From a virus (Duplodnaviria; Caudoviricetes), in IMG/VR virus record IMGVR_UViG_3300032248_000400, positions 1-64,000 of that record: a DNA stretch of 64,000 nt; one strand, 5' to 3'. The notes under the pieces are model-generated. The model was not told the origin of the DNA, made no database searches, and saw only the letters and a program-made list of their open reading frames with translations. This document shows positions 13,189-55,261 of this stretch, piece by piece; within the stretch, counting starts at the first letter, position 1, and each line of letters opens with the position of its first letter. A program made the translations under genes and the position numbers.

Positions 13189-14376
13189 ATGATAAACATT
13201 TTTAGAAAAGAAGTAGATACAAATAAGTATTTTATTGTAACCTACGAATTAGCATCAGAAACAAATTTAAGAGATGCGGCATGGAATTTGGCAATAGGTC
13301 AAAGTGTAGGAAATCCAAATGTTAGAAACCAATGGGAAACTGATGAGTTGTTTGAAAATCATAGTTGTTTGGTATTGGCAAATGAAGATGAACTTAAATC
13401 TACCAATAGTGGATTGGTTAACATTGCATTTCCAATTGCAAATATTGATTTTAAAACCGATGGTATTTCACATTTATTAGTGAATATTATGGGTGGACAA
13501 ATGGACATTGATAACATTACTAAATGTGCCGTTAAAGATATTTTCTTTCCACAACATATTGAAGATTTATTCTTAGGGCCTAAATTTGGTATCAAAGGAA
13601 TTAGAGAATATACTAAAACATTTGATAAACCATTATTTGGTGCAATCGTAAAACCTAAAATTGGTATTAGTCCAGAAACATTGTTAGAAATGGTTAAAGA
13701 ATTAGTAGAAGGTGGAGTAAATTTTATTAAAGAAGATGAGATTATGAGTAATCCGGCTTTTTGTACAATTGAAGAAAGGGTACCATTGATTGCAGAATAC
13801 CTAAAAGATAAAAATGTAGTTTATTGTGTATCAATTCATTCAGATTATCCACACATTTTAGATAGAGTTAAAAGAGTATATGAATTGGGTGGTAATGGTG
13901 TTCATATCAATTTTTGGTGTGGATTGGGTGTTTATAAAGCAGTAAGAGAATTGGATTTACCTATCTTTATACACTTCCAAAAAAGTGGAGATAAAATTTT
14001 TACAAATAGAAACCATGCGTATTATATCGATTGGACTGTTGTATGTAAATTGGCAGGTATGATGGGAGTTGATTTTATTCATGCTGGTATGATTGGTGGA
14101 TATTACAAATGGCCAGAAGATGAAGTTATTGATTCAATGAAAGTATTACATCAATATGGTGTAATGCCTGCATTAAGTTGTGGATTTCAACCTGGTCTTA
14201 CTAAATGGGTAACCGATAGAGTTGGTATTGATTATATGGCAAATGTGGGTGGAGCTATACATGGTCATCCAATGGGAACATTATCTGGTGCAAAAGCAAT
14301 GAAACAAAGTATTGATGGGACATATGGTGATGAATATAATCATGCAATTGCAAAATGGGGATTAAAGACTAATTAA
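13189..14376 (+). CDS. RuBisCO-like protein (form IV RLP)
   Basis: GPKFG, IVKPKIG, GGVNFIKEDE, DFIHAG, LSCG, NVGGAIHGHP; lacks the E60, N123, R295 and K334 equivalents. Confidence 0.92.
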   Translation: MINIFRKEVDTNKYFIVTYELASETNLRDAAWNLAIGQSVGNPNVRNQWETDELFENHSCLVLANEDELKSTNSGLVNIAFPIANIDFKTDGISHLLVNIMGGQMDIDNITKCAVKDIFFPQHIEDLFLGPKFGIKGIREYTKTFDKPLFGAIVKPKIGISPETLLEMVKELVEGGVNFIKEDEIMSNPAFCTIEERVPLIAEYLKDKNVVYCVSIHSDYPHILDRVKRVYELGGNGVHINFWCGLGVYKAVRELDLPIFIHFQKSGDKIFTNRNHAYYIDWTVVCKLAGMMGVDFIHAGMIGGYYKWPEDEVIDSMKVLHQYGVMPALSCGFQPGLTKWVTDRVGIDYMANVGGAIHGHPMGTLSGAKAMKQSIDGTYGDEYNHAIAKWGLKTN

Positions 14377-44013: not shown

Positions 44014-44526
44014 ATGAGAGCCATAAAATTAGTAAGCCAAACCGAAGAAACCGAATTGATGATACGATTGGGTAACGAATTGAGTACCGCCGGATTCAAT
44101 GCCGATACGGCGTGTATTATAACTGTTTCTACGGATTATAGTTCCGTGGTAGGTCAATACCTTCGGCACCGATTATCGAGCGGTGGTGAGGTTTGTGAGG
44201 GGTTTGGAGTGGATGTTCCATACCCTGATGAGAATTGGGATGATACGTATCAAACCGGATTGGCACGTGCATTCACCAACAACATGTCCATACTGAGAAA
44301 GCGGACCCCAATACTGGTTGAAGCCGGTGTGATTAGGGGTGGTAACTACGAATGGATTACAAATTGGATGCGAAAATATTTGGCATTTGATAAAAAAATT
44401 ATTACATTAGCACTATATGAAAACCTACACTCTCGGTTTAAATCGGATTTTGTAGGCGAATACTATGATAACGAAACCGAAGATTTAACTTTTTGGTGGG
44501 AACGAGAAAACCGGCATTGGAAATAA
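44014..44526 (+). CDS. phosphoribosyltransferase-like protein
   Basis: ILVEAGVIRGGN resembles a PRPP loop; visibly more GC-rich than flanks. Confidence 0.5.
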   Translation: MRAIKLVSQTEETELMIRLGNELSTAGFNADTACIITVSTDYSSVVGQYLRHRLSSGGEVCEGFGVDVPYPDENWDDTYQTGLARAFTNNMSILRKRTPILVEAGVIRGGNYEWITNWMRKYLAFDKKIITLALYENLHSRFKSDFVGEYYDNETEDLTFWWERENRHWK

Positions 44527-44536
44527 AAACAAAAGA

Positions 44537-44689
44537 ATGAAGATTAAGAATTGGGAGAAATTTGTAACAACAGATGAAGAACCCCCAAAATTCCAAAAGA
44601 AAAAACCCAAATCAAAGCGTATGTTGGGTGAAGAATGGATAAAATCGGGTAAAAAACCGGTTGAAAAGAGGCGTTTGAGGCCTGAATAG
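44537..44689 (+). CDS. 50 aa basic hypothetical protein
   Basis: Hand-translated MKIKNWEKFVTTDEEPPKFQKKK...RLRPE. Confidence 0.45.
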   Translation: MKIKNWEKFVTTDEEPPKFQKKKPKSKRMLGEEWIKSGKKPVEKRRLRPE

Positions 44690-44740
44690 GGTTAGTGTGT
44701 AATTGCCTAATTCGTTGAAAACCAATGATATAAAAATTTA

Positions 44741-44772
44741 TTTGGCGGATTGAAATATTTATGGTATATTTG
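44741..44772 (+). promoter_or_regulatory. promoter for tmRNA
   Basis: TTTG 44741, N20, TATATTTG 44765 (perfect -7 box). Confidence 0.85.
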
Positions 44773-44812
44773 TATTCATCCGTTAAATAATCGGATTAGT
44801 TCTTTAAAATAT

Positions 44813-45224
44813 GGGGATGTTTGGAATCGATTGCTATGCAAAAGATAGTACCACATGCAGAGATATCGTATTAGTTCTCTTTAAATCTATACGAAACAAT
44901 AACTGACGCTAAGTCAACAATGACCTTCGATGACCTTATGGCATTCGTAGGTGCGGATTACGCTGTAGCAGCCTAGTCCAACTCGGGTGAGTAACCTAGG
45001 AACAGAACTACTCTGAGCGTTCACGATCGACTCATTAAATAAAGATAGTGGAAATGGTTTTCTTTGTTTCATAAAACAAAGTGGTGGACTCGGCCCATAA
45101 AACGGTCAACCCTATACGGTGCAGACCATTTCGTTGGTATCAACAAAATGGCCAGTACTAAGCATGTGAATCTCTGGTATTATAGTTTCTTAGTAAGACG
45201 CGAGTTCGAATCTCGCCATCTCCA
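44813..45224 (+). ncRNA. ssrA: tmRNA; tag (A)DAKSTMTFDDLMAFVGADYAVAA*
   Basis: GGGGATG/CATCTCC-A acceptor stem with G3:U; T-arm GCGAG-TTCGAAT-CTCGC; ATAACT before resume codon GAC 44905; TAG 44974-44976. Confidence 0.96.
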
Positions 45225-45325
45225 CGAATATTATTTAAGTATGGTAATCCTACTAACACAACTAGCGGACTTGAATAATAAATAAAAAAAGATTTGGTGA
45301 ATTGAAAAATTTATCCTATCTTACA

Positions 45326-45411
45326 TTTAAGATGGTTGATTGAAGCCAACAACTAATAAAACCGATTGTGTGACCCCGTAAGGAATAAAGCCGGATATCG
45401 AACATCTTAAA
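45326..45411 (+). ncRNA. candidate small RNA 1
   Basis: Between promoters 1 and 2; closed by TTTAAGATG/CATCTTAAA; CC-GTAA-GG loop. Confidence 0.45.
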
Positions 45412-45449
45412 AAAAGATTTGGTAGATTGAAAAAAATATCTTATCTTTA

Positions 45450-45509
45450 TAAAGATTCAGAAATAAAGTAGTTGATTGGTTCGCCAGAAAACAAAATTGA
45501 GAATCTTTA
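45450..45509 (+). ncRNA. candidate small RNA 2
   Basis: Between promoters 2 and 3; closed by TAAAGATTC/GAATCTTTA; TGG-TTCG-CCA loop. Confidence 0.4.
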
Positions 45510-45579
45510 AAAATAAATTTGGTAGATTGAAAAAGATTTCGTATCTTTAATTCTAACAAAGAAGTTCTTTAACATAATG

Positions 45580-46458
45580 AATAATTTACATAGTGAGTTC
45601 GTCTCACATAGTAAATAACCGCCGCCTATGGTGGTTAAATAAACTACGAAAGTAGGATAAAGTGAGTGTATTGGTTTAATACATTTGCGGCTACTCTCCC
45701 CGTAAGGAGAGATTAGCTTGAGTAGGCAAGTGGGGTATCACTTGGGCTTTGTACGAAAGGGTAACACTATATCGGAAGAGTTTGAGTGACCGGGGTAAGT
45801 AGATACTTCGGTTGAGTTCGGAAGAACAATAAGAATAACCCATAGAATTTATGTAAGAAATCAGAACTTAATCCCTTCTGACTATTGCGTGATTCAATAT
45901 TAGAGTGGTCTTAACATCAAGCTATCCGAAAGGACGTAAGATAAGACTGTGTACAGGTGGTGCTGTTACTATCCTTTTATAAAGTGTACCAACGCTTATA
46001 AATGAAGATGACTCAAAATATGGTGATAGGGATATCACATCGGGTAGTTTAGTATTTCGTTTTTCAAAAGAAAACGGAGCTTGGGGCAAACCACTATCTG
46101 AATCCATCTACAAACCACAAACTTTTATCAAATGGAATTTGATTATTCAATAACAATAAAAGCATAAGTGTTTGCCAGTTACGGACGAAAGGTGTGTACA
46201 TAGTAGGGAGTTGTTCTCTGCCACGATACCTCCGCAAGAGGTCTGTGATTCTATCTAAAAGTTTCTAATTCCGCAAGAACTAATCAGGCTGCGAGGCTTG
46301 AGGAAATGGAGTAAATAGAGAGTAAGACGTAACTCAAAGACTGATAGTCTCAAATCATCCACATTGTATCGGTACTACTCAAAAGGTAGTGGATAAGAAA
46401 GGAAACAAATAATCTTTCTAAAGTTGGTACACCTGAAGAGGTAATCTCACTCTTTTAT
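45580..46458 (+). ncRNA. large ornate structured RNA, GOLLD-like (~870 nt)
   Basis: No + strand ORF; GC-richer than flanks; dense hairpins with GNRA loops; own promoter; abuts tRNA-Gly. Class assignment is inferred and ends are approximate. Confidence 0.68.
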
Positions 46459-46460
46459 TA

Positions 46461-46531
46461 GCGGAATTAGTGTAACGGTAGCACACTTACCTTCCAGGTG
46501 AGAGGATGGAGTTCAATTCTCTGGTCCCGCT
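46461..46531 (+). tRNA. tRNA-Gly(TCC), imperfect stems, no encoded CCA
   Basis: CTTAC-CTTCCAG-GTGAG anticodon arm, TTCAATT T-loop, U73. Confidence 0.8.
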
Positions 46532-46547
46532 CTATATGATATAAGTT

Positions 46548-47216
46548 ATGAGTGATTTGAATTTTAATTGGGTAAAGGAAAACTTTGAAACTCAAGAAAA
46601 TTTTGTATTTTTTGATATTGGTTGTGCTATTTTAAAACATTCATCAACATCAGAGATGCAAAAAATTTTACCAAATGGTAAATATTACGCATTTGAAGCA
46701 GCAAATCATTGGAACGATATTAATGGTGAATGTGATAATAAAGAATATGCAAAAGAAGCAGGAATAAATTATTATCATTGCGCAGTATCTGATATTGATG
46801 GTGAAATTGATTTAATACCATCTCTTACAGAAAACGGCCAACGACATCCGTGGTCAAGTAGTATTTTTAAAATGAATGATGCTACATCTACAAAAATATA
46901 TGGTAATCCCTACTCTGTCAAATCAATTCGTTTGGAAACTTTTTGTAAAGAAAATAATGTAACTCCTGATTTTATTCATATAGATGTAGAAGGTGCTGAA
47001 CTAAAAGTTTTTAAAAATATTGGCCAATATAAACCAAAATTTATATGGGCAGAAACATGTACGTTTCAACATTATGATACAAAAATTACTACCAAAGAAT
47101 TTCACAAATATATGGAAAGTATTGGATATCATATAATTAGTTATTCAAATGGAAATGATACTCTATATGGCTTAGATGGATTTAAAACAACACCATACTG
47201 CAGTAAATTTTTATAA
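46548..47216 (+). CDS. FkbM-family methyltransferase
   Basis: FFDIGC, YAFEA, AVSD..G, DFIHIDVEGAEL.V. Confidence 0.9.
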   Translation: MSDLNFNWVKENFETQENFVFFDIGCAILKHSSTSEMQKILPNGKYYAFEAANHWNDINGECDNKEYAKEAGINYYHCAVSDIDGEIDLIPSLTENGQRHPWSSSIFKMNDATSTKIYGNPYSVKSIRLETFCKENNVTPDFIHIDVEGAELKVFKNIGQYKPKFIWAETCTFQHYDTKITTKEFHKYMESIGYHIISYSNGNDTLYGLDGFKTTPYCSKFL

Positions 47217-47224
47217 AATAGTTT

Positions 47225-47500
47225 ATGAAAGAATTTAAAGATTTAATATTTAAGACACGTTTTACAGGCGAAGGTATAATTTCCAGATTACAATTTGATA
47301 ATGGATACGGAGTATCGGTAGCAAAACACGATAGTTCCTATGGCGGAAAGCTAGGACTTTACGAATTAGCAGTATTGGATAGTTATGGTGAGTTACATTA
47401 CGATAACCCTGTTGCTAAAGGTGATGTTGTTGGATATTTACGTGAGGAAGATGTAACGGATGCAATGGCACTTATTCAGAAATTTGAACCATTGCAATAA
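47225..47500 (+). CDS. conserved phage hypothetical protein
   Basis: F.NGYGVSV.....SYGG..GLYELAVL...DV.GYL pattern. Confidence 0.75.
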   Translation: MKEFKDLIFKTRFTGEGIISRLQFDNGYGVSVAKHDSSYGGKLGLYELAVLDSYGELHYDNPVAKGDVVGYLREEDVTDAMALIQKFEPLQ

Positions 47501-47505
47501 ACTAT

Positions 47506-47592
47506 GCCCCGGTGGTGAAATTGGTAGACACGCAGGACTTAAAATCCTGTTCGCCGAAAAAGCGAGTGCGGGTTCAAGTCCCGCTTGGGGCA
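47506..47592 (+). tRNA. tRNA-Leu(TAA), no encoded CCA
   Basis: CAGGA-CTTAAAA-TCCTG, long variable arm, GCGGG-TTCAAGT-CCCGC. Confidence 0.96.
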
Positions 47593-47598
47593 CAATAT

Positions 47599-47945
47599 AC
47601 TATCGTTCTTTGACATATAAGGAGACACACATTATGGAAACATTATCATTCATTTTAGGGATAGCGTTGGTGGTGGTTATTGCTCTTGCAATAGTTGCTG
47701 TTTATGCTTTCGTTAAGGTAGGAAAATTAGAAAACCAAATTAGAGATTTTGATAACAGAGAGCAAGGTATTTATCGAGCACTTAGTGATCAAGCTGATTG
47801 GATAAGTAAACGAATTGATGAAACTGAACGTAATATCAACGACTTGGAAAAAGAAGTATTTTCTCAATTAGATTCACGTTTAGACAAATTAGAAAACAAA
47901 TTAATTAATAACAAAAAATAAAAATTAAAGTCAAAGAACGATAGT
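47599..47945. repeat. 16 bp perfect inverted repeat enclosing one gene
   Basis: ACTATCGTTCTTTGAC 47599-47614 / GTCAAAGAACGATAGT 47930-47945. Confidence 0.93.
47634..47921 (+). CDS. bitopic membrane coiled-coil protein (95 aa)
   Basis: Start trimmed past tRNA-Leu; TAAGGAG 9 nt upstream; TM helix then heptads. Confidence 0.75.
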   Translation: METLSFILGIALVVVIALAIVAVYAFVKVGKLENQIRDFDNREQGIYRALSDQADWISKRIDETERNINDLEKEVFSQLDSRLDKLENKLINNKK

Positions 47946-47963
47946 TATATTAAATTATTTTTT

Positions 47964-48521
47964 ATGAGAGTAAATTGGAAAAAATTAATAATAGCAATAA
48001 TATTAACAATAATATTGGGTTGGTTAATGTACTTAATATATCAATCAAGAATAGATAAGCCATTTAACGTAGTAAATTTATCTTTTAAAAATAAAATAAT
48101 AAATGAGGAGTTTCCCGCTTATTATGATACCATATTGAGTGTTGGTTTAGATAATATCAACATAAGGGATATAACCATTGAATTACATCAAATATCAGAA
48201 TCAACAAAAACAAAACTAGAAGGTGTTGAAATAAAAGCACATTTAAGATATTCGGATGGTATATACTATCTATTCGTTGATAAGTGGGGTAGAGATGAAA
48301 CAATTACAATACTATCACATGAACTTATACACATTATGCAATATCATAGTGGTATTTTATATTATATGGATGGAATAGTGTTTTGGCAAAGTGCACCCAA
48401 TTTAATTCACTACGAAGAATATGATTTAAATAATACAGACTATGTTAGCAGACCATGGGAAGATGATGCTTTCAAAAAGCAAAACGATATGGAACGTAGT
48501 ATAACGGATATATTATATTAA
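47964..48521 (+). CDS. membrane-anchored HExxH metallopeptidase-like protein
   Basis: N-term TM, LSHELIHIMQY, RPWEDDA. Confidence 0.7.
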   Translation: MRVNWKKLIIAIILTIILGWLMYLIYQSRIDKPFNVVNLSFKNKIINEEFPAYYDTILSVGLDNINIRDITIELHQISESTKTKLEGVEIKAHLRYSDGIYYLFVDKWGRDETITILSHELIHIMQYHSGILYYMDGIVFWQSAPNLIHYEEYDLNNTDYVSRPWEDDAFKKQNDMERSITDILY

Positions 48522-48670
48522 AATATGGGCATTAGTGGATATGCCAAAAAGAAAAATAGATGTTTTTCATCCACTTATCGCAGGTATAGTACAATTGTAA
48601 GTGCTCTGATATTCCAAATCAGAAAAGGTCAGTTCGATCCTGACACCTGTTCAAATCTAACTATAATGCA

Positions 48671-48735
48671 TAACTGGTTGATTACTAATGTATTAAAAAT
48701 ATATTTGGTAATATCAGGTATTTGTCGTATCTTAC
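48671..48735 (+). promoter_or_regulatory. 25 bp IHF-like palindrome plus promoter
   Basis: TAACTGGTTGATTACTAATGTATTA 48671-95; TTTG 48704; TATCTTAC 48728. Confidence 0.7.
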
Positions 48736-48757
48736 ATATCAATCAAAAAATAAAATT

Positions 48758-49015
48758 ATGTTATTTATTATTTATTTAGTATCTGTAACTTATTGCATTT
48801 TCAAAATGTATCGTAGTTACAAAAAAAGGGGAATTGACCCAATCTACGCAACACCGGGATTAGAAACAATGGCAATTATTGCAATGGCACCTGTATTGAT
48901 GGCAGTTGATGTATCAATGACTTGGATTAGAGTATATAAAGAAGCTGAAGAATCTCGTATTAGAAGAAATAAAATTGAATTTGATTTTACTGATGATAAA
49001 GGTGAGATATTTTAA
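48758..49015 (+). CDS. small membrane protein
   Basis: Start trimmed to the ATG after the promoter; two hydrophobic segments. Confidence 0.6.
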   Translation: MLFIIYLVSVTYCIFKMYRSYKKRGIDPIYATPGLETMAIIAMAPVLMAVDVSMTWIRVYKEAEESRIRRNKIEFDFTDDKGEIF

Positions 49016-53938: not shown

Positions 53939-55261
53939 ATGCCTAAAACAAATGTAAAAAAATCACAAACTACTAAAACAAAAAAAATGGTAAAAAGAAA
54001 AACAACGCCTCGTAAGACAGTTAAACGTGTTAGTACAAAAAAATCAACAACAGATATTAATGTTGGTTTTACTACTGAATGTTACAAAGTAATTCAAATG
54101 GGTAGAACGTTCGCAATGTTAACTACGAAAAATGATGTAGTTCAGAAATTGGCCGGTGTATCTAAACAAAAGATGAAACAGGCTCATACCGAAGGTAAAG
54201 CAATTCGTGGGTATGTTGGTAAAACCGGCTCACTTACTTATAAAATGGTAGAGATGGATGATTTCAAAAAACTGGCAAACACAATCAATGATGAAGCATG
54301 TGATAGTGTAAGTGAAGCATTTGAAACACACGAACATCTTAAACAATTCATTCATACTAAAGGTATGGAACTGAAACCCGAAGGATTGTTTATTGAACAA
54401 TTGAAGTGGAAATATCTTCTTCGTTCAGCAGTTAGGGGTAAGAACATAATGATGCTTGGCCCAACCGGTTGTGGTAAAACACTTGCCGCTCAATCTTTGG
54501 TTAAATCATTGAAACGACCTGATTTCTATTTCAACTTAGGTGCTACGCAAGATGCTAGAGCAGCTCTTATTGGTAACACACATTTTGATAAAATTAAAGG
54601 TACGTTCTTTAGTGAATCCGCTTTCGTTAAAGCAATCAAAACTCCAAACGCAATCATCTTATTGGATGAGTTGAGTAGAGCACATCCAGAAGCTGCGAAT
54701 ATCTTAATGACTGTATTAGATGCAGGACAACGATATCTTCGTTTAGATGAGGCTGATGGTTCACCAATTGTAAAAGTTGCAAGTGGTGTTACATTCATCG
54801 CTACCGCTAACGTAGGTAATGAGTACACAGCGACTCGTATTATGGATAGGGCTCTATTGGATAGGTTCGTAACTATTGAAATGGATTTGTTGGATAAGCA
54901 AAGTGAATATGAATTATTGAAATTCAAATTCCCTGAAGCAAACGATTACGAATTGAACGCATTGGCTGAGATTGCTGATACGACTCGCCAGTTAATCAAA
55001 ACTGATATGAGTAAGGTATCAACGATTGTATCTACCCGTGTTAACGTAGAGGCAGCTGGATTGATATATGATGGCTTCTCTCTAATGGAGGCGGCTGAGA
55101 TTGCAATCCTTCCATACTTTTCAAATGATGGTGGACTTGATTCGGAGCGTGTGTTCATTAAGCAATTGGTTCAGAAATTTATTAAATCCGCTGATGAATC
55201 AGAACTTTTTACAGAAGTGAAAGATGAAGAAGGACAGGATGAAGAAACTATCAAGTGGTAG
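53939..55261 (+). CDS. MoxR/CobS-type AAA+ ATPase
   Basis: GPTGCGKT, LLDELSRA, FIATAN, D.ALLDRF. Confidence 0.92.
   Translation: MPKTNVKKSQTTKTKKMVKRKTTPRKTVKRVSTKKSTTDINVGFTTECYKVIQMGRTFAMLTTKNDVVQKLAGVSKQKMKQAHTEGKAIRGYVGKTGSLTYKMVEMDDFKKLANTINDEACDSVSEAFETHEHLKQFIHTKGMELKPEGLFIEQLKWKYLLRSAVRGKNIMMLGPTGCGKTLAAQSLVKSLKRPDFYFNLGATQDARAALIGNTHFDKIKGTFFSESAFVKAIKTPNAIILLDELSRAHPEAANILMTVLDAGQRYLRLDEADGSPIVKVASGVTFIATANVGNEYTATRIMDRALLDRFVTIEMDLLDKQSEYELLKFKFPEANDYELNALAEIADTTRQLIKTDMSKVSTIVSTRVNVEAAGLIYDGFSLMEAAEIAILPYFSNDGGLDSERVFIKQLVQKFIKSADESELFTEVKDEEGQDEETIKW

Follow-up and report, generated by a model that had tools for sequence, protein, structure and literature searches.

A complete GOLLD RNA of the env-38 type in a phage RNA island, with a predicted promoter and a boxA-like word in its leader

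Genomic setting of the locus

The DNA analysed here, termed “the window” in the following, is a stretch of 64,000 nucleotides from the start of a linear virus record in IMG/VR, which has a total length of 73.6 kb. CheckV rates this record as 33% complete, and therefore it represents about one third of a phage genome of roughly 200 kb. The G+C content is ~30%, and nearly all long open reading frames (ORFs) are located on the + strand. The same strand harbours an RNA island, which comprises a phage tmRNA (44813-45225), a GOLLD RNA (45621-46456) and, 7 nt past the end of the Rfam match to the latter, a tRNA-Gly(tcc) (46461-46532); two further tRNAs are found near GOLLD. The tmRNA, which is context and lies outside GOLLD, and the tRNA-Gly were both identified by ARAGORN and Rfam, in agreement with an earlier note on this DNA that had placed a large non-coding RNA between these genes. 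A coding reading of the stretch was considered and rejected: there is no + strand ORF of at least 40 amino acids within 45286-46547, as the note had also remarked, and the minus-strand ORFs of this interval are few (47-61 aa).

In a blastn comparison with GenBank phages, two partial matches only were obtained, in uncultured phages of 630-640 kb. Elsewhere in the window, the gene at 13189-14376 (+) codes for a 395-aa protein with a RuBisCO large-chain catalytic domain (PF00016, 113 bits) and belongs to a sugar-modifying cluster, along with genes for a GT4 glycosyltransferase, a HAD-nucleotidyltransferase fusion and a DegT aminotransferase. Its product is probably a RuBisCO-like protein, an unusual cargo for a phage. 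CbbQ-type ATPases serve as RuBisCO activases in some bacteria, and a MoxR/CbbQ-type AAA+ ATPase (AAA_5 plus CbbQ_C) is encoded at 53939-55261 (+); it may conceivably be linked with the RuBisCO-like gene, at a distance of 40 kb. A search of genome contigs with the DegT-like protein retrieved matches of 28-30% identity from unrelated phyla and gave no clue to the host.

Identity and fold of the GOLLD RNA

The GOLLD family reportedly goes back to Weinberg et al. 2009 and is said to occur in phages, prophages and lake as well as marine metagenomes. An Rfam covariance-model search assigned 46040-46453 (+) to this family (RF02032) with 270.7 bits at an E-value of 4e-76, the gathering score being 150. 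The alignment takes in all of model positions 1-416, without truncation and with high posterior probability, few pairs of this 3' domain are non-canonical, and the match was obtained again in a second search of the virus record. The models that the earlier note had proposed to run besides GOLLD, namely ROOL, HEARO and introns, returned nothing in 44700-48800 at E-values up to 1, nor did any other Rfam family apart from GOLLD, tmRNA and tRNAs.

RF02032, with its 416 positions, models the 3' domain only, so the 5' half needed a test of its own. To this end, IMG/VR was scanned with a 3'-domain word, which led to 115 fetched loci, and nhmmer with 45550-46039 as the query matched 21 loci (19 from IMG/VR and two GenBank phage loci) with E-values from 3e-79 to 8e-22. 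The 3' half matches in 21/21 of these as well, in identical order and on the same strand. The possibility raised in the earlier note of a new ornate RNA class that is merely GOLLD-like, to which the 3'-only model had given some room, is thereby refuted: an untruncated full-length match, a 5' half homologous to those of loci bearing the 3' domain and to the printed env-38 sequence (see below), and the lack of a second family in the searched interval leave it with virtually no probability. The note's other alternative, a GOLLD member, is borne out by the score and by a 5' domain of the env-38 type.

The alignment of 5' halves (18 sequences) is well conserved from ~45621 on. Its RNAalifold consensus contains 103 pairs, 70 of which show compensatory changes, and thus the covariation whose absence would have spoken against the earlier proposal is strong. 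The minimum free energy of 45620-46456 (-220.5 kcal/mol) has a z-score of -2.45 (20 shuffles), which is suggestive and, taken alone, modest; the structure goes beyond chance because of the strong covariation across the 18 homologues and the Rfam E-value. As part of a metagenomic fragment, the element might be a decaying GOLLD copy that has lost its function. This is highly improbable, since 99 of the 103 consensus pairs of the 5' domain are kept in the window sequence, non-canonical pairs are few in the 3' domain, and the bridge loops, the promoter and the boxA word discussed below are all in place.

Within the ~836 nt of the RNA, the 5' domain extends from 45621 to 46039, as delimited by nhmmer, alignment and covariation, and the 3' domain from 46040 to 46456; in env-38 these domains build the half-shell cap and the equatorial ring, respectively. 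A variable A/U-rich linker at 46101-46177 coincides with the unpaired model positions 62-137, and ARAGORN detects no tRNA in it. The hairpins listed in the earlier note all lie where it had placed them: GTGAG (45593-45597)/CTCAC (45603-45607), CTAC-GAAA-GTAG (45644-45655), CTCTCC (45694-45699)/GGAGAG (45706-45711), TCC-GAAA-GGA (45925-45934), ACCTC (46228-46232)/GAGGT and CAGGCT-GCGA-GGCTTG (46285-46300), and the same TCAAAAG loop indeed caps two stems (46064-46070 and 46379-46385). Regarding the extent, which the note had given as 45580-46458, the element itself stands; the published core instead starts at ~45621, and the hairpin at 45593 is part of a 65-nt leader. TCC-GAAA-GGA forms the tip of an extended hairpin (45916-45942, +) equivalent to L11a. 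Of the 18 aligned sequences, 16 lack 17 nt of this hairpin; the insertion is shared only by the window and its closest relative, L117, and resembles an extension in env-38.

In summary, 45621-46456 (+) is a complete, ordinary GOLLD RNA and belongs to the env-38 type, known from lake/marine phages. At the sequence level, the score, the complete 3' domain, the ~400-nt 5' domain, the location in a phage next to tRNAs and the bridge loops all agree with membership, and there is no substantial difference from the RF02032 family, the Rfam model being devoid of the 5' domain. The element adds one more full-length member to a known family, and, as the earlier note had foreseen for a strong GOLLD match, the call gains in certainty what it loses in novelty.

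The neighbourhood of GOLLD was compared among 22 loci, i.e., the window and the 21 fetched relatives. In 8 of about 21-22 loci, GOLLD is followed by a tRNA that begins no more than 17 nt from its 3' end. The fetched flanks include a tmRNA at 6 of the 22 (the window, L117, L038, L066, L053 and L110), which amount to five distinct loci, as L053 and L110 overlap. In L117, the order is tmRNA, tRNA-Met, GOLLD and then ~20 tRNAs. A tRNA-Met(cat) also abuts GOLLD in many relatives, either upstream (L011, L070, L003) or downstream (L093, L074, L104, L028).

Correspondence with the env-38 cage

Env-38 is a GOLLD RNA of 833 nt, the structure of which was determined by cryo-EM as a homo-14-meric cage with D7 symmetry (Kretsch et al. 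2025, PMC12286853). The cage measures ~380 Å across and assembles without protein; the 5' domains form half-shell caps, the 3' domains an equatorial ring, and the linker is disordered and located inside the cage (PMC12286853). Env-38 lies downstream of a tRNA-Met, in line with a known association of GOLLD with tRNAs, and the roles suggested for the RNA include the enclosing of tRNAs or other cargo; ribosome binding has also been reported (PMC12286853). Among the contacts between subunits, bridge B6 is an intermolecular A-minor contact by A447/A448, which involves an L14/P14 interaction and a conserved A-run, while in bridge B10 A763/A764 dock into the partner half-shell (PMC12286853).

The printed env-38 sequence (PMC12286853, supplement) shares with the window the opening words GGCCGC-UAUGGUC, AAAUAAA and GAAAGUAGGAUAAAGUG, and also contains both CAAAAG loops. 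According to the Rfam alignment, the first TCAAAAG of the window (46064-46070, +) is the loop that caps the hairpin with which the 3' domain opens; it represents the conserved UCAAAAG of the model and corresponds to L14, with its last two A's equivalent to A447/A448 (B6). The second TCAAAAG (46379-46385, +) caps the hairpin of model positions 337-357 and, by the same alignment and the residue count in env-38, corresponds to the A763/A764 loop (B10), which connects the half-shells. In this count, A447/A448 and A763/A764 fall at the 3' ends of the two CAAAAG loops of env-38; it is approximate, with letters dropped in the PDF text and an offset of +2 rising to ~+14, and was calibrated on G33-A35, G656/C657 and G675-A677. 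Further loops of the window are CGCAA at 46233-46237 and 46272-46276 and GCGA at 46291-46294: a CGCAA loop corresponds to the B8 contact, a second CGCAA loop is likewise kept, and the GC-containing loop corresponds to B9.

By homology, the two UCAAAAG loops would provide the adenosines for the intermolecular A-minor bridges B6 and B10, and we infer that the RNA encoded here assembles, free of protein, into a 14-meric D7 cage. The view of the earlier note that the repeated loops may be assembly contacts agrees with their alignment to the B6 and B10 loops, and for env-38 it is in print already. The window RNA and env-38 are alike in their two-domain layout, the opening 5' words, the GAAA-tipped L11a, both CAAAAG loops, the CGCAA loop of L21a, the GC-containing loop of L21b and their length (~836 versus 833 nt). 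Yet, the two sequences have diverged, and the cage of the window copy is a prediction by homology. Moreover, env-38 lies downstream of a tRNA-Met, whereas the window GOLLD is followed by a tRNA-Gly, and the env-38 construct did not include a natural 65-nt leader with boxA word and hairpin such as that found here. ROOL, another large phage RNA near tRNA islands, likewise forms an RNA-only cage (an 8-mer), but is unrelated to the present GOLLD in sequence and fold and has no match in the window.

Promoter-like repeats and the leader hairpin

A 43-nt direct repeat, D1, occurs in four + strand copies, one before the tmRNA (44730) and three in the interval between tmRNA and GOLLD (45282, 45407 and 45507). 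Every copy conforms to the pattern TTTG-N20-TAnnTTTn, and this type of -33/-7 layout is characteristic of Bacteroidota promoters. The copy ahead of the tmRNA contains a perfect TTTG-N20-TATATTTG (44741-44772), which is the predicted tmRNA promoter. Of the three copies upstream of GOLLD, the first (TTTG-N20-TATCTTAC, 45293-45324) and the second (TTTG-N20-TATCTTTA, 45418-45449) are promoter-like, and the proximal one (45518-45549), which repeats the word of the second copy in the same -33/-7 layout, is the predicted GOLLD promoter. The core word of D1 is found 8 times in the window (1.4 expected). L117 has TTTG-N20-TATATTTG at the matching site before GOLLD, and TAnnTTTG is present upstream of GOLLD in most relatives. 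The more general pattern TTTG-N19-21-TAnnTTTG is also in excess, with 12 matches in the window compared to 3.1 expected; as support for the host call this is weak, because 8 of the 12 are on the non-coding strand. In a scan with the sigma-70 consensus, the tmRNA copy was the only repeat to be recognised as a promoter; the repeats otherwise escaped it because their layout is -33/-7.

With the last D1 copy ending at 45549, transcription of GOLLD would start near 45555, which is also where the nhmmer homology to the closest relatives begins. Downstream of this putative start, and outside the published core, the leader forms a hairpin that can be read directly from the letters (TTTAC-ATA-GTGAG/CTCAC-ATA-GTAAA, 45585-45617, +). 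In L117, its inner stem is altered on both sides and still paired (GTAGA/TCTAC), and other relatives have a different hairpin at this position.

Alternatively, GOLLD might be a segment of a single tmRNA-GOLLD-tRNA precursor, in which case the three repeats would not be promoters. In favour of this, the genes are all co-oriented, and no + strand terminator is predicted in 44500-47000. However, the repeat combines the -33/-7 layout with an A-rich upstream tract, recurs before the tmRNA and is kept in L117 directly upstream of GOLLD, which makes the single precursor improbable. We thus favour a separate start of GOLLD transcription at the proximal repeat.

The spacers between the repeats contain elements of their own. 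An end-paired element of ~85 nt (45326-45411) lies between the first and the second copy and has a homologue in L117 (959-1033, nhmmer E 7e-07), directly after the tRNA-Met. Its closing stem differs from the homologue on both sides and is still paired (TTTAAGATG/CATCTTAAA versus GTTAAGGT/ACCTTAAC), and AACTAATAAAACCGATTG is common to both. The element matches no Rfam family and may represent either a small RNA or a hairpin involved in processing. A second end-paired spacer (45446-45513; TTTATAAAGATTC/GAATCTTTAAAAA) is situated between the second and the third copy, and has no detectable homologue among the fetched loci.

A boxA-like word ahead of GOLLD and tmRNA

Fifteen nucleotides after the -7 element of the proximal repeat, the leader contains the boxA-like word GTTCTTTAACAT (45564-45575, +). 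A related word, GTTCTTTAA (44799-44807, +), lies 14 nt before the 5' end of the tmRNA and behind the predicted tmRNA promoter. The tmRNA of L066 (upstream of 6311) displays the same arrangement of promoter and boxA word, which is missing before the three other neighbouring tmRNAs. In the window, GTTCTTTRA is matched 10 times (2.4 expected). Of the 19 relatives with enough upstream sequence, 18 have GTTCTT[TA][GA]A at 21-97 nt ahead of the GOLLD core, the exception being L002, and it is often the sole copy on its strand of a GOLLD locus of 5-14 kb.

The boxA consensus is UGCUCUUUAACA in E. coli and AUGAUCUUUGAAA in B. subtilis (PMC13753749). The window word AGUUCUUUAACA closely matches the E. 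coli sequence, and GUUCUUUGAAA of the relatives closely matches GAUCUUUGAAA of B. subtilis. A further comparison made use of 120 fetched metagenome loci with a 16S 5' end of a type that we take to be the signature of Bacteroidota, the presumed host group, 104 of which are distinct and have enough flanking sequence. The word occurs at most 350 nt upstream of the 16S gene in 57 of these 104 loci, ~50-fold above the expected 0.011 per 350 nt of the same strand. Within the literature library searched, no paper links GOLLD with boxA, and nothing beyond primer lists came up for boxA with GUUCUUUG or GTTCTTTG.

The leader word is likely an rrn-type boxA antitermination signal, as its resemblance to the consensus and its occurrence before 16S genes suggest. 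The GOLLD leader resembles a bacterial rrn leader with its tandem promoters, boxA and Nus-factor antitermination: predicted host-type promoters are repeated at intervals of ~100-125 nt, and behind them come a boxA-like word, a long RNA that is structured and untranslated, and downstream tRNAs. In contrast to an rrn operon, the product here is a phage RNA rather than rRNA, and antitermination is a prediction. The window copy also lacks a boxB-like hairpin between promoter and boxA, which many relatives possess.

It is possible, albeit unlikely, that GTTCTTTAA has another function, as part of a precursor fold, as an RNase processing site or as a site bound by a phage factor. Three relatives have the word between tRNA-Met and GOLLD, and not behind a promoter, and it is present at only two of the five distinct neighbouring tmRNAs. 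On the other hand, in rrn operons the spacer tRNAs are followed by a second boxA. The distance to the core varies (21-97 nt), as would be expected of a linear signal and not of a structural element with a fixed place in the fold, and the enrichment before Bacteroidota-type 16S genes and the closeness to the published consensus likewise speak against these other functions. An antitermination signal hence remains our preferred reading of the word.

Related words are found at additional sites. In the three relatives L011, L070 and L003, the position between tRNA-Met and GOLLD is reminiscent of the spacer boxA of rrn operons. The window contains a third boxA-like word directly after a tRNA-Leu (47605-47613, +) and, ~320 nt downstream, the reverse complement of that word (47931-47939, -), and this pair brackets a small ORF (47634-47921). 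Several ROOL sequences start with words similar to UUCUUUGACAA or CUUUGAAA (alignment in supplementary file 5 of PMC12286853), and a boxA-like leader may therefore precede ROOL as well.

Proposed expression route and implications

The elements described above can be arranged into a likely expression route, which consists of promoter, boxA word, leader hairpin and 3' cleavage at the tRNA-Gly. The host RNA polymerase would start at the promoter ending at 45549, perhaps reinforced by the two upstream repeat copies in a manner comparable to P1 and P2 of rrn operons. NusB/NusE would be recruited by the boxA word and render RNA polymerase resistant to Rho on a long untranslated transcript, and a cut by RNase P at the adjoining tRNA-Gly would release the 3' end of GOLLD. 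The transcript would then assemble into the 14-mer, with the 5' domains as caps, the 3' domains as ring and the UCAAAAG loops in bridges B6 and B10. Taken together, we are confident in assigning the locus to GOLLD, as a complete member of the env-38 type in an RNA island, with an expression route and a 14-meric cage as predicted from its sequence features.

Beyond this single locus, the phages of the clade may express GOLLD, and in the present case also tmRNA, in a way that imitates a host rRNA operon, using repeated host-type promoters together with an rrn-type boxA that recruits the Nus antitermination complex; we consider this somewhat more probable than its opposite. If true, the cage RNA would be made at rates similar to those of rRNA and be folded co-transcriptionally like rRNA, and GOLLD would be functionally tied to the translation apparatus. 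The natural transcript would possess a conserved leader, comprising promoter, boxA word and hairpin, which has been left out of the structural constructs. This leader suggests a way to produce an untranslated RNA of ~900 nt without Rho termination and offers a handle on the level and timing of its expression. Finally, the tmRNA and tRNA neighbourhood is compatible with a role of GOLLD in translation, and the position beside tmRNA within tRNA islands supports seeking the function of GOLLD in translation or ribosome rescue.
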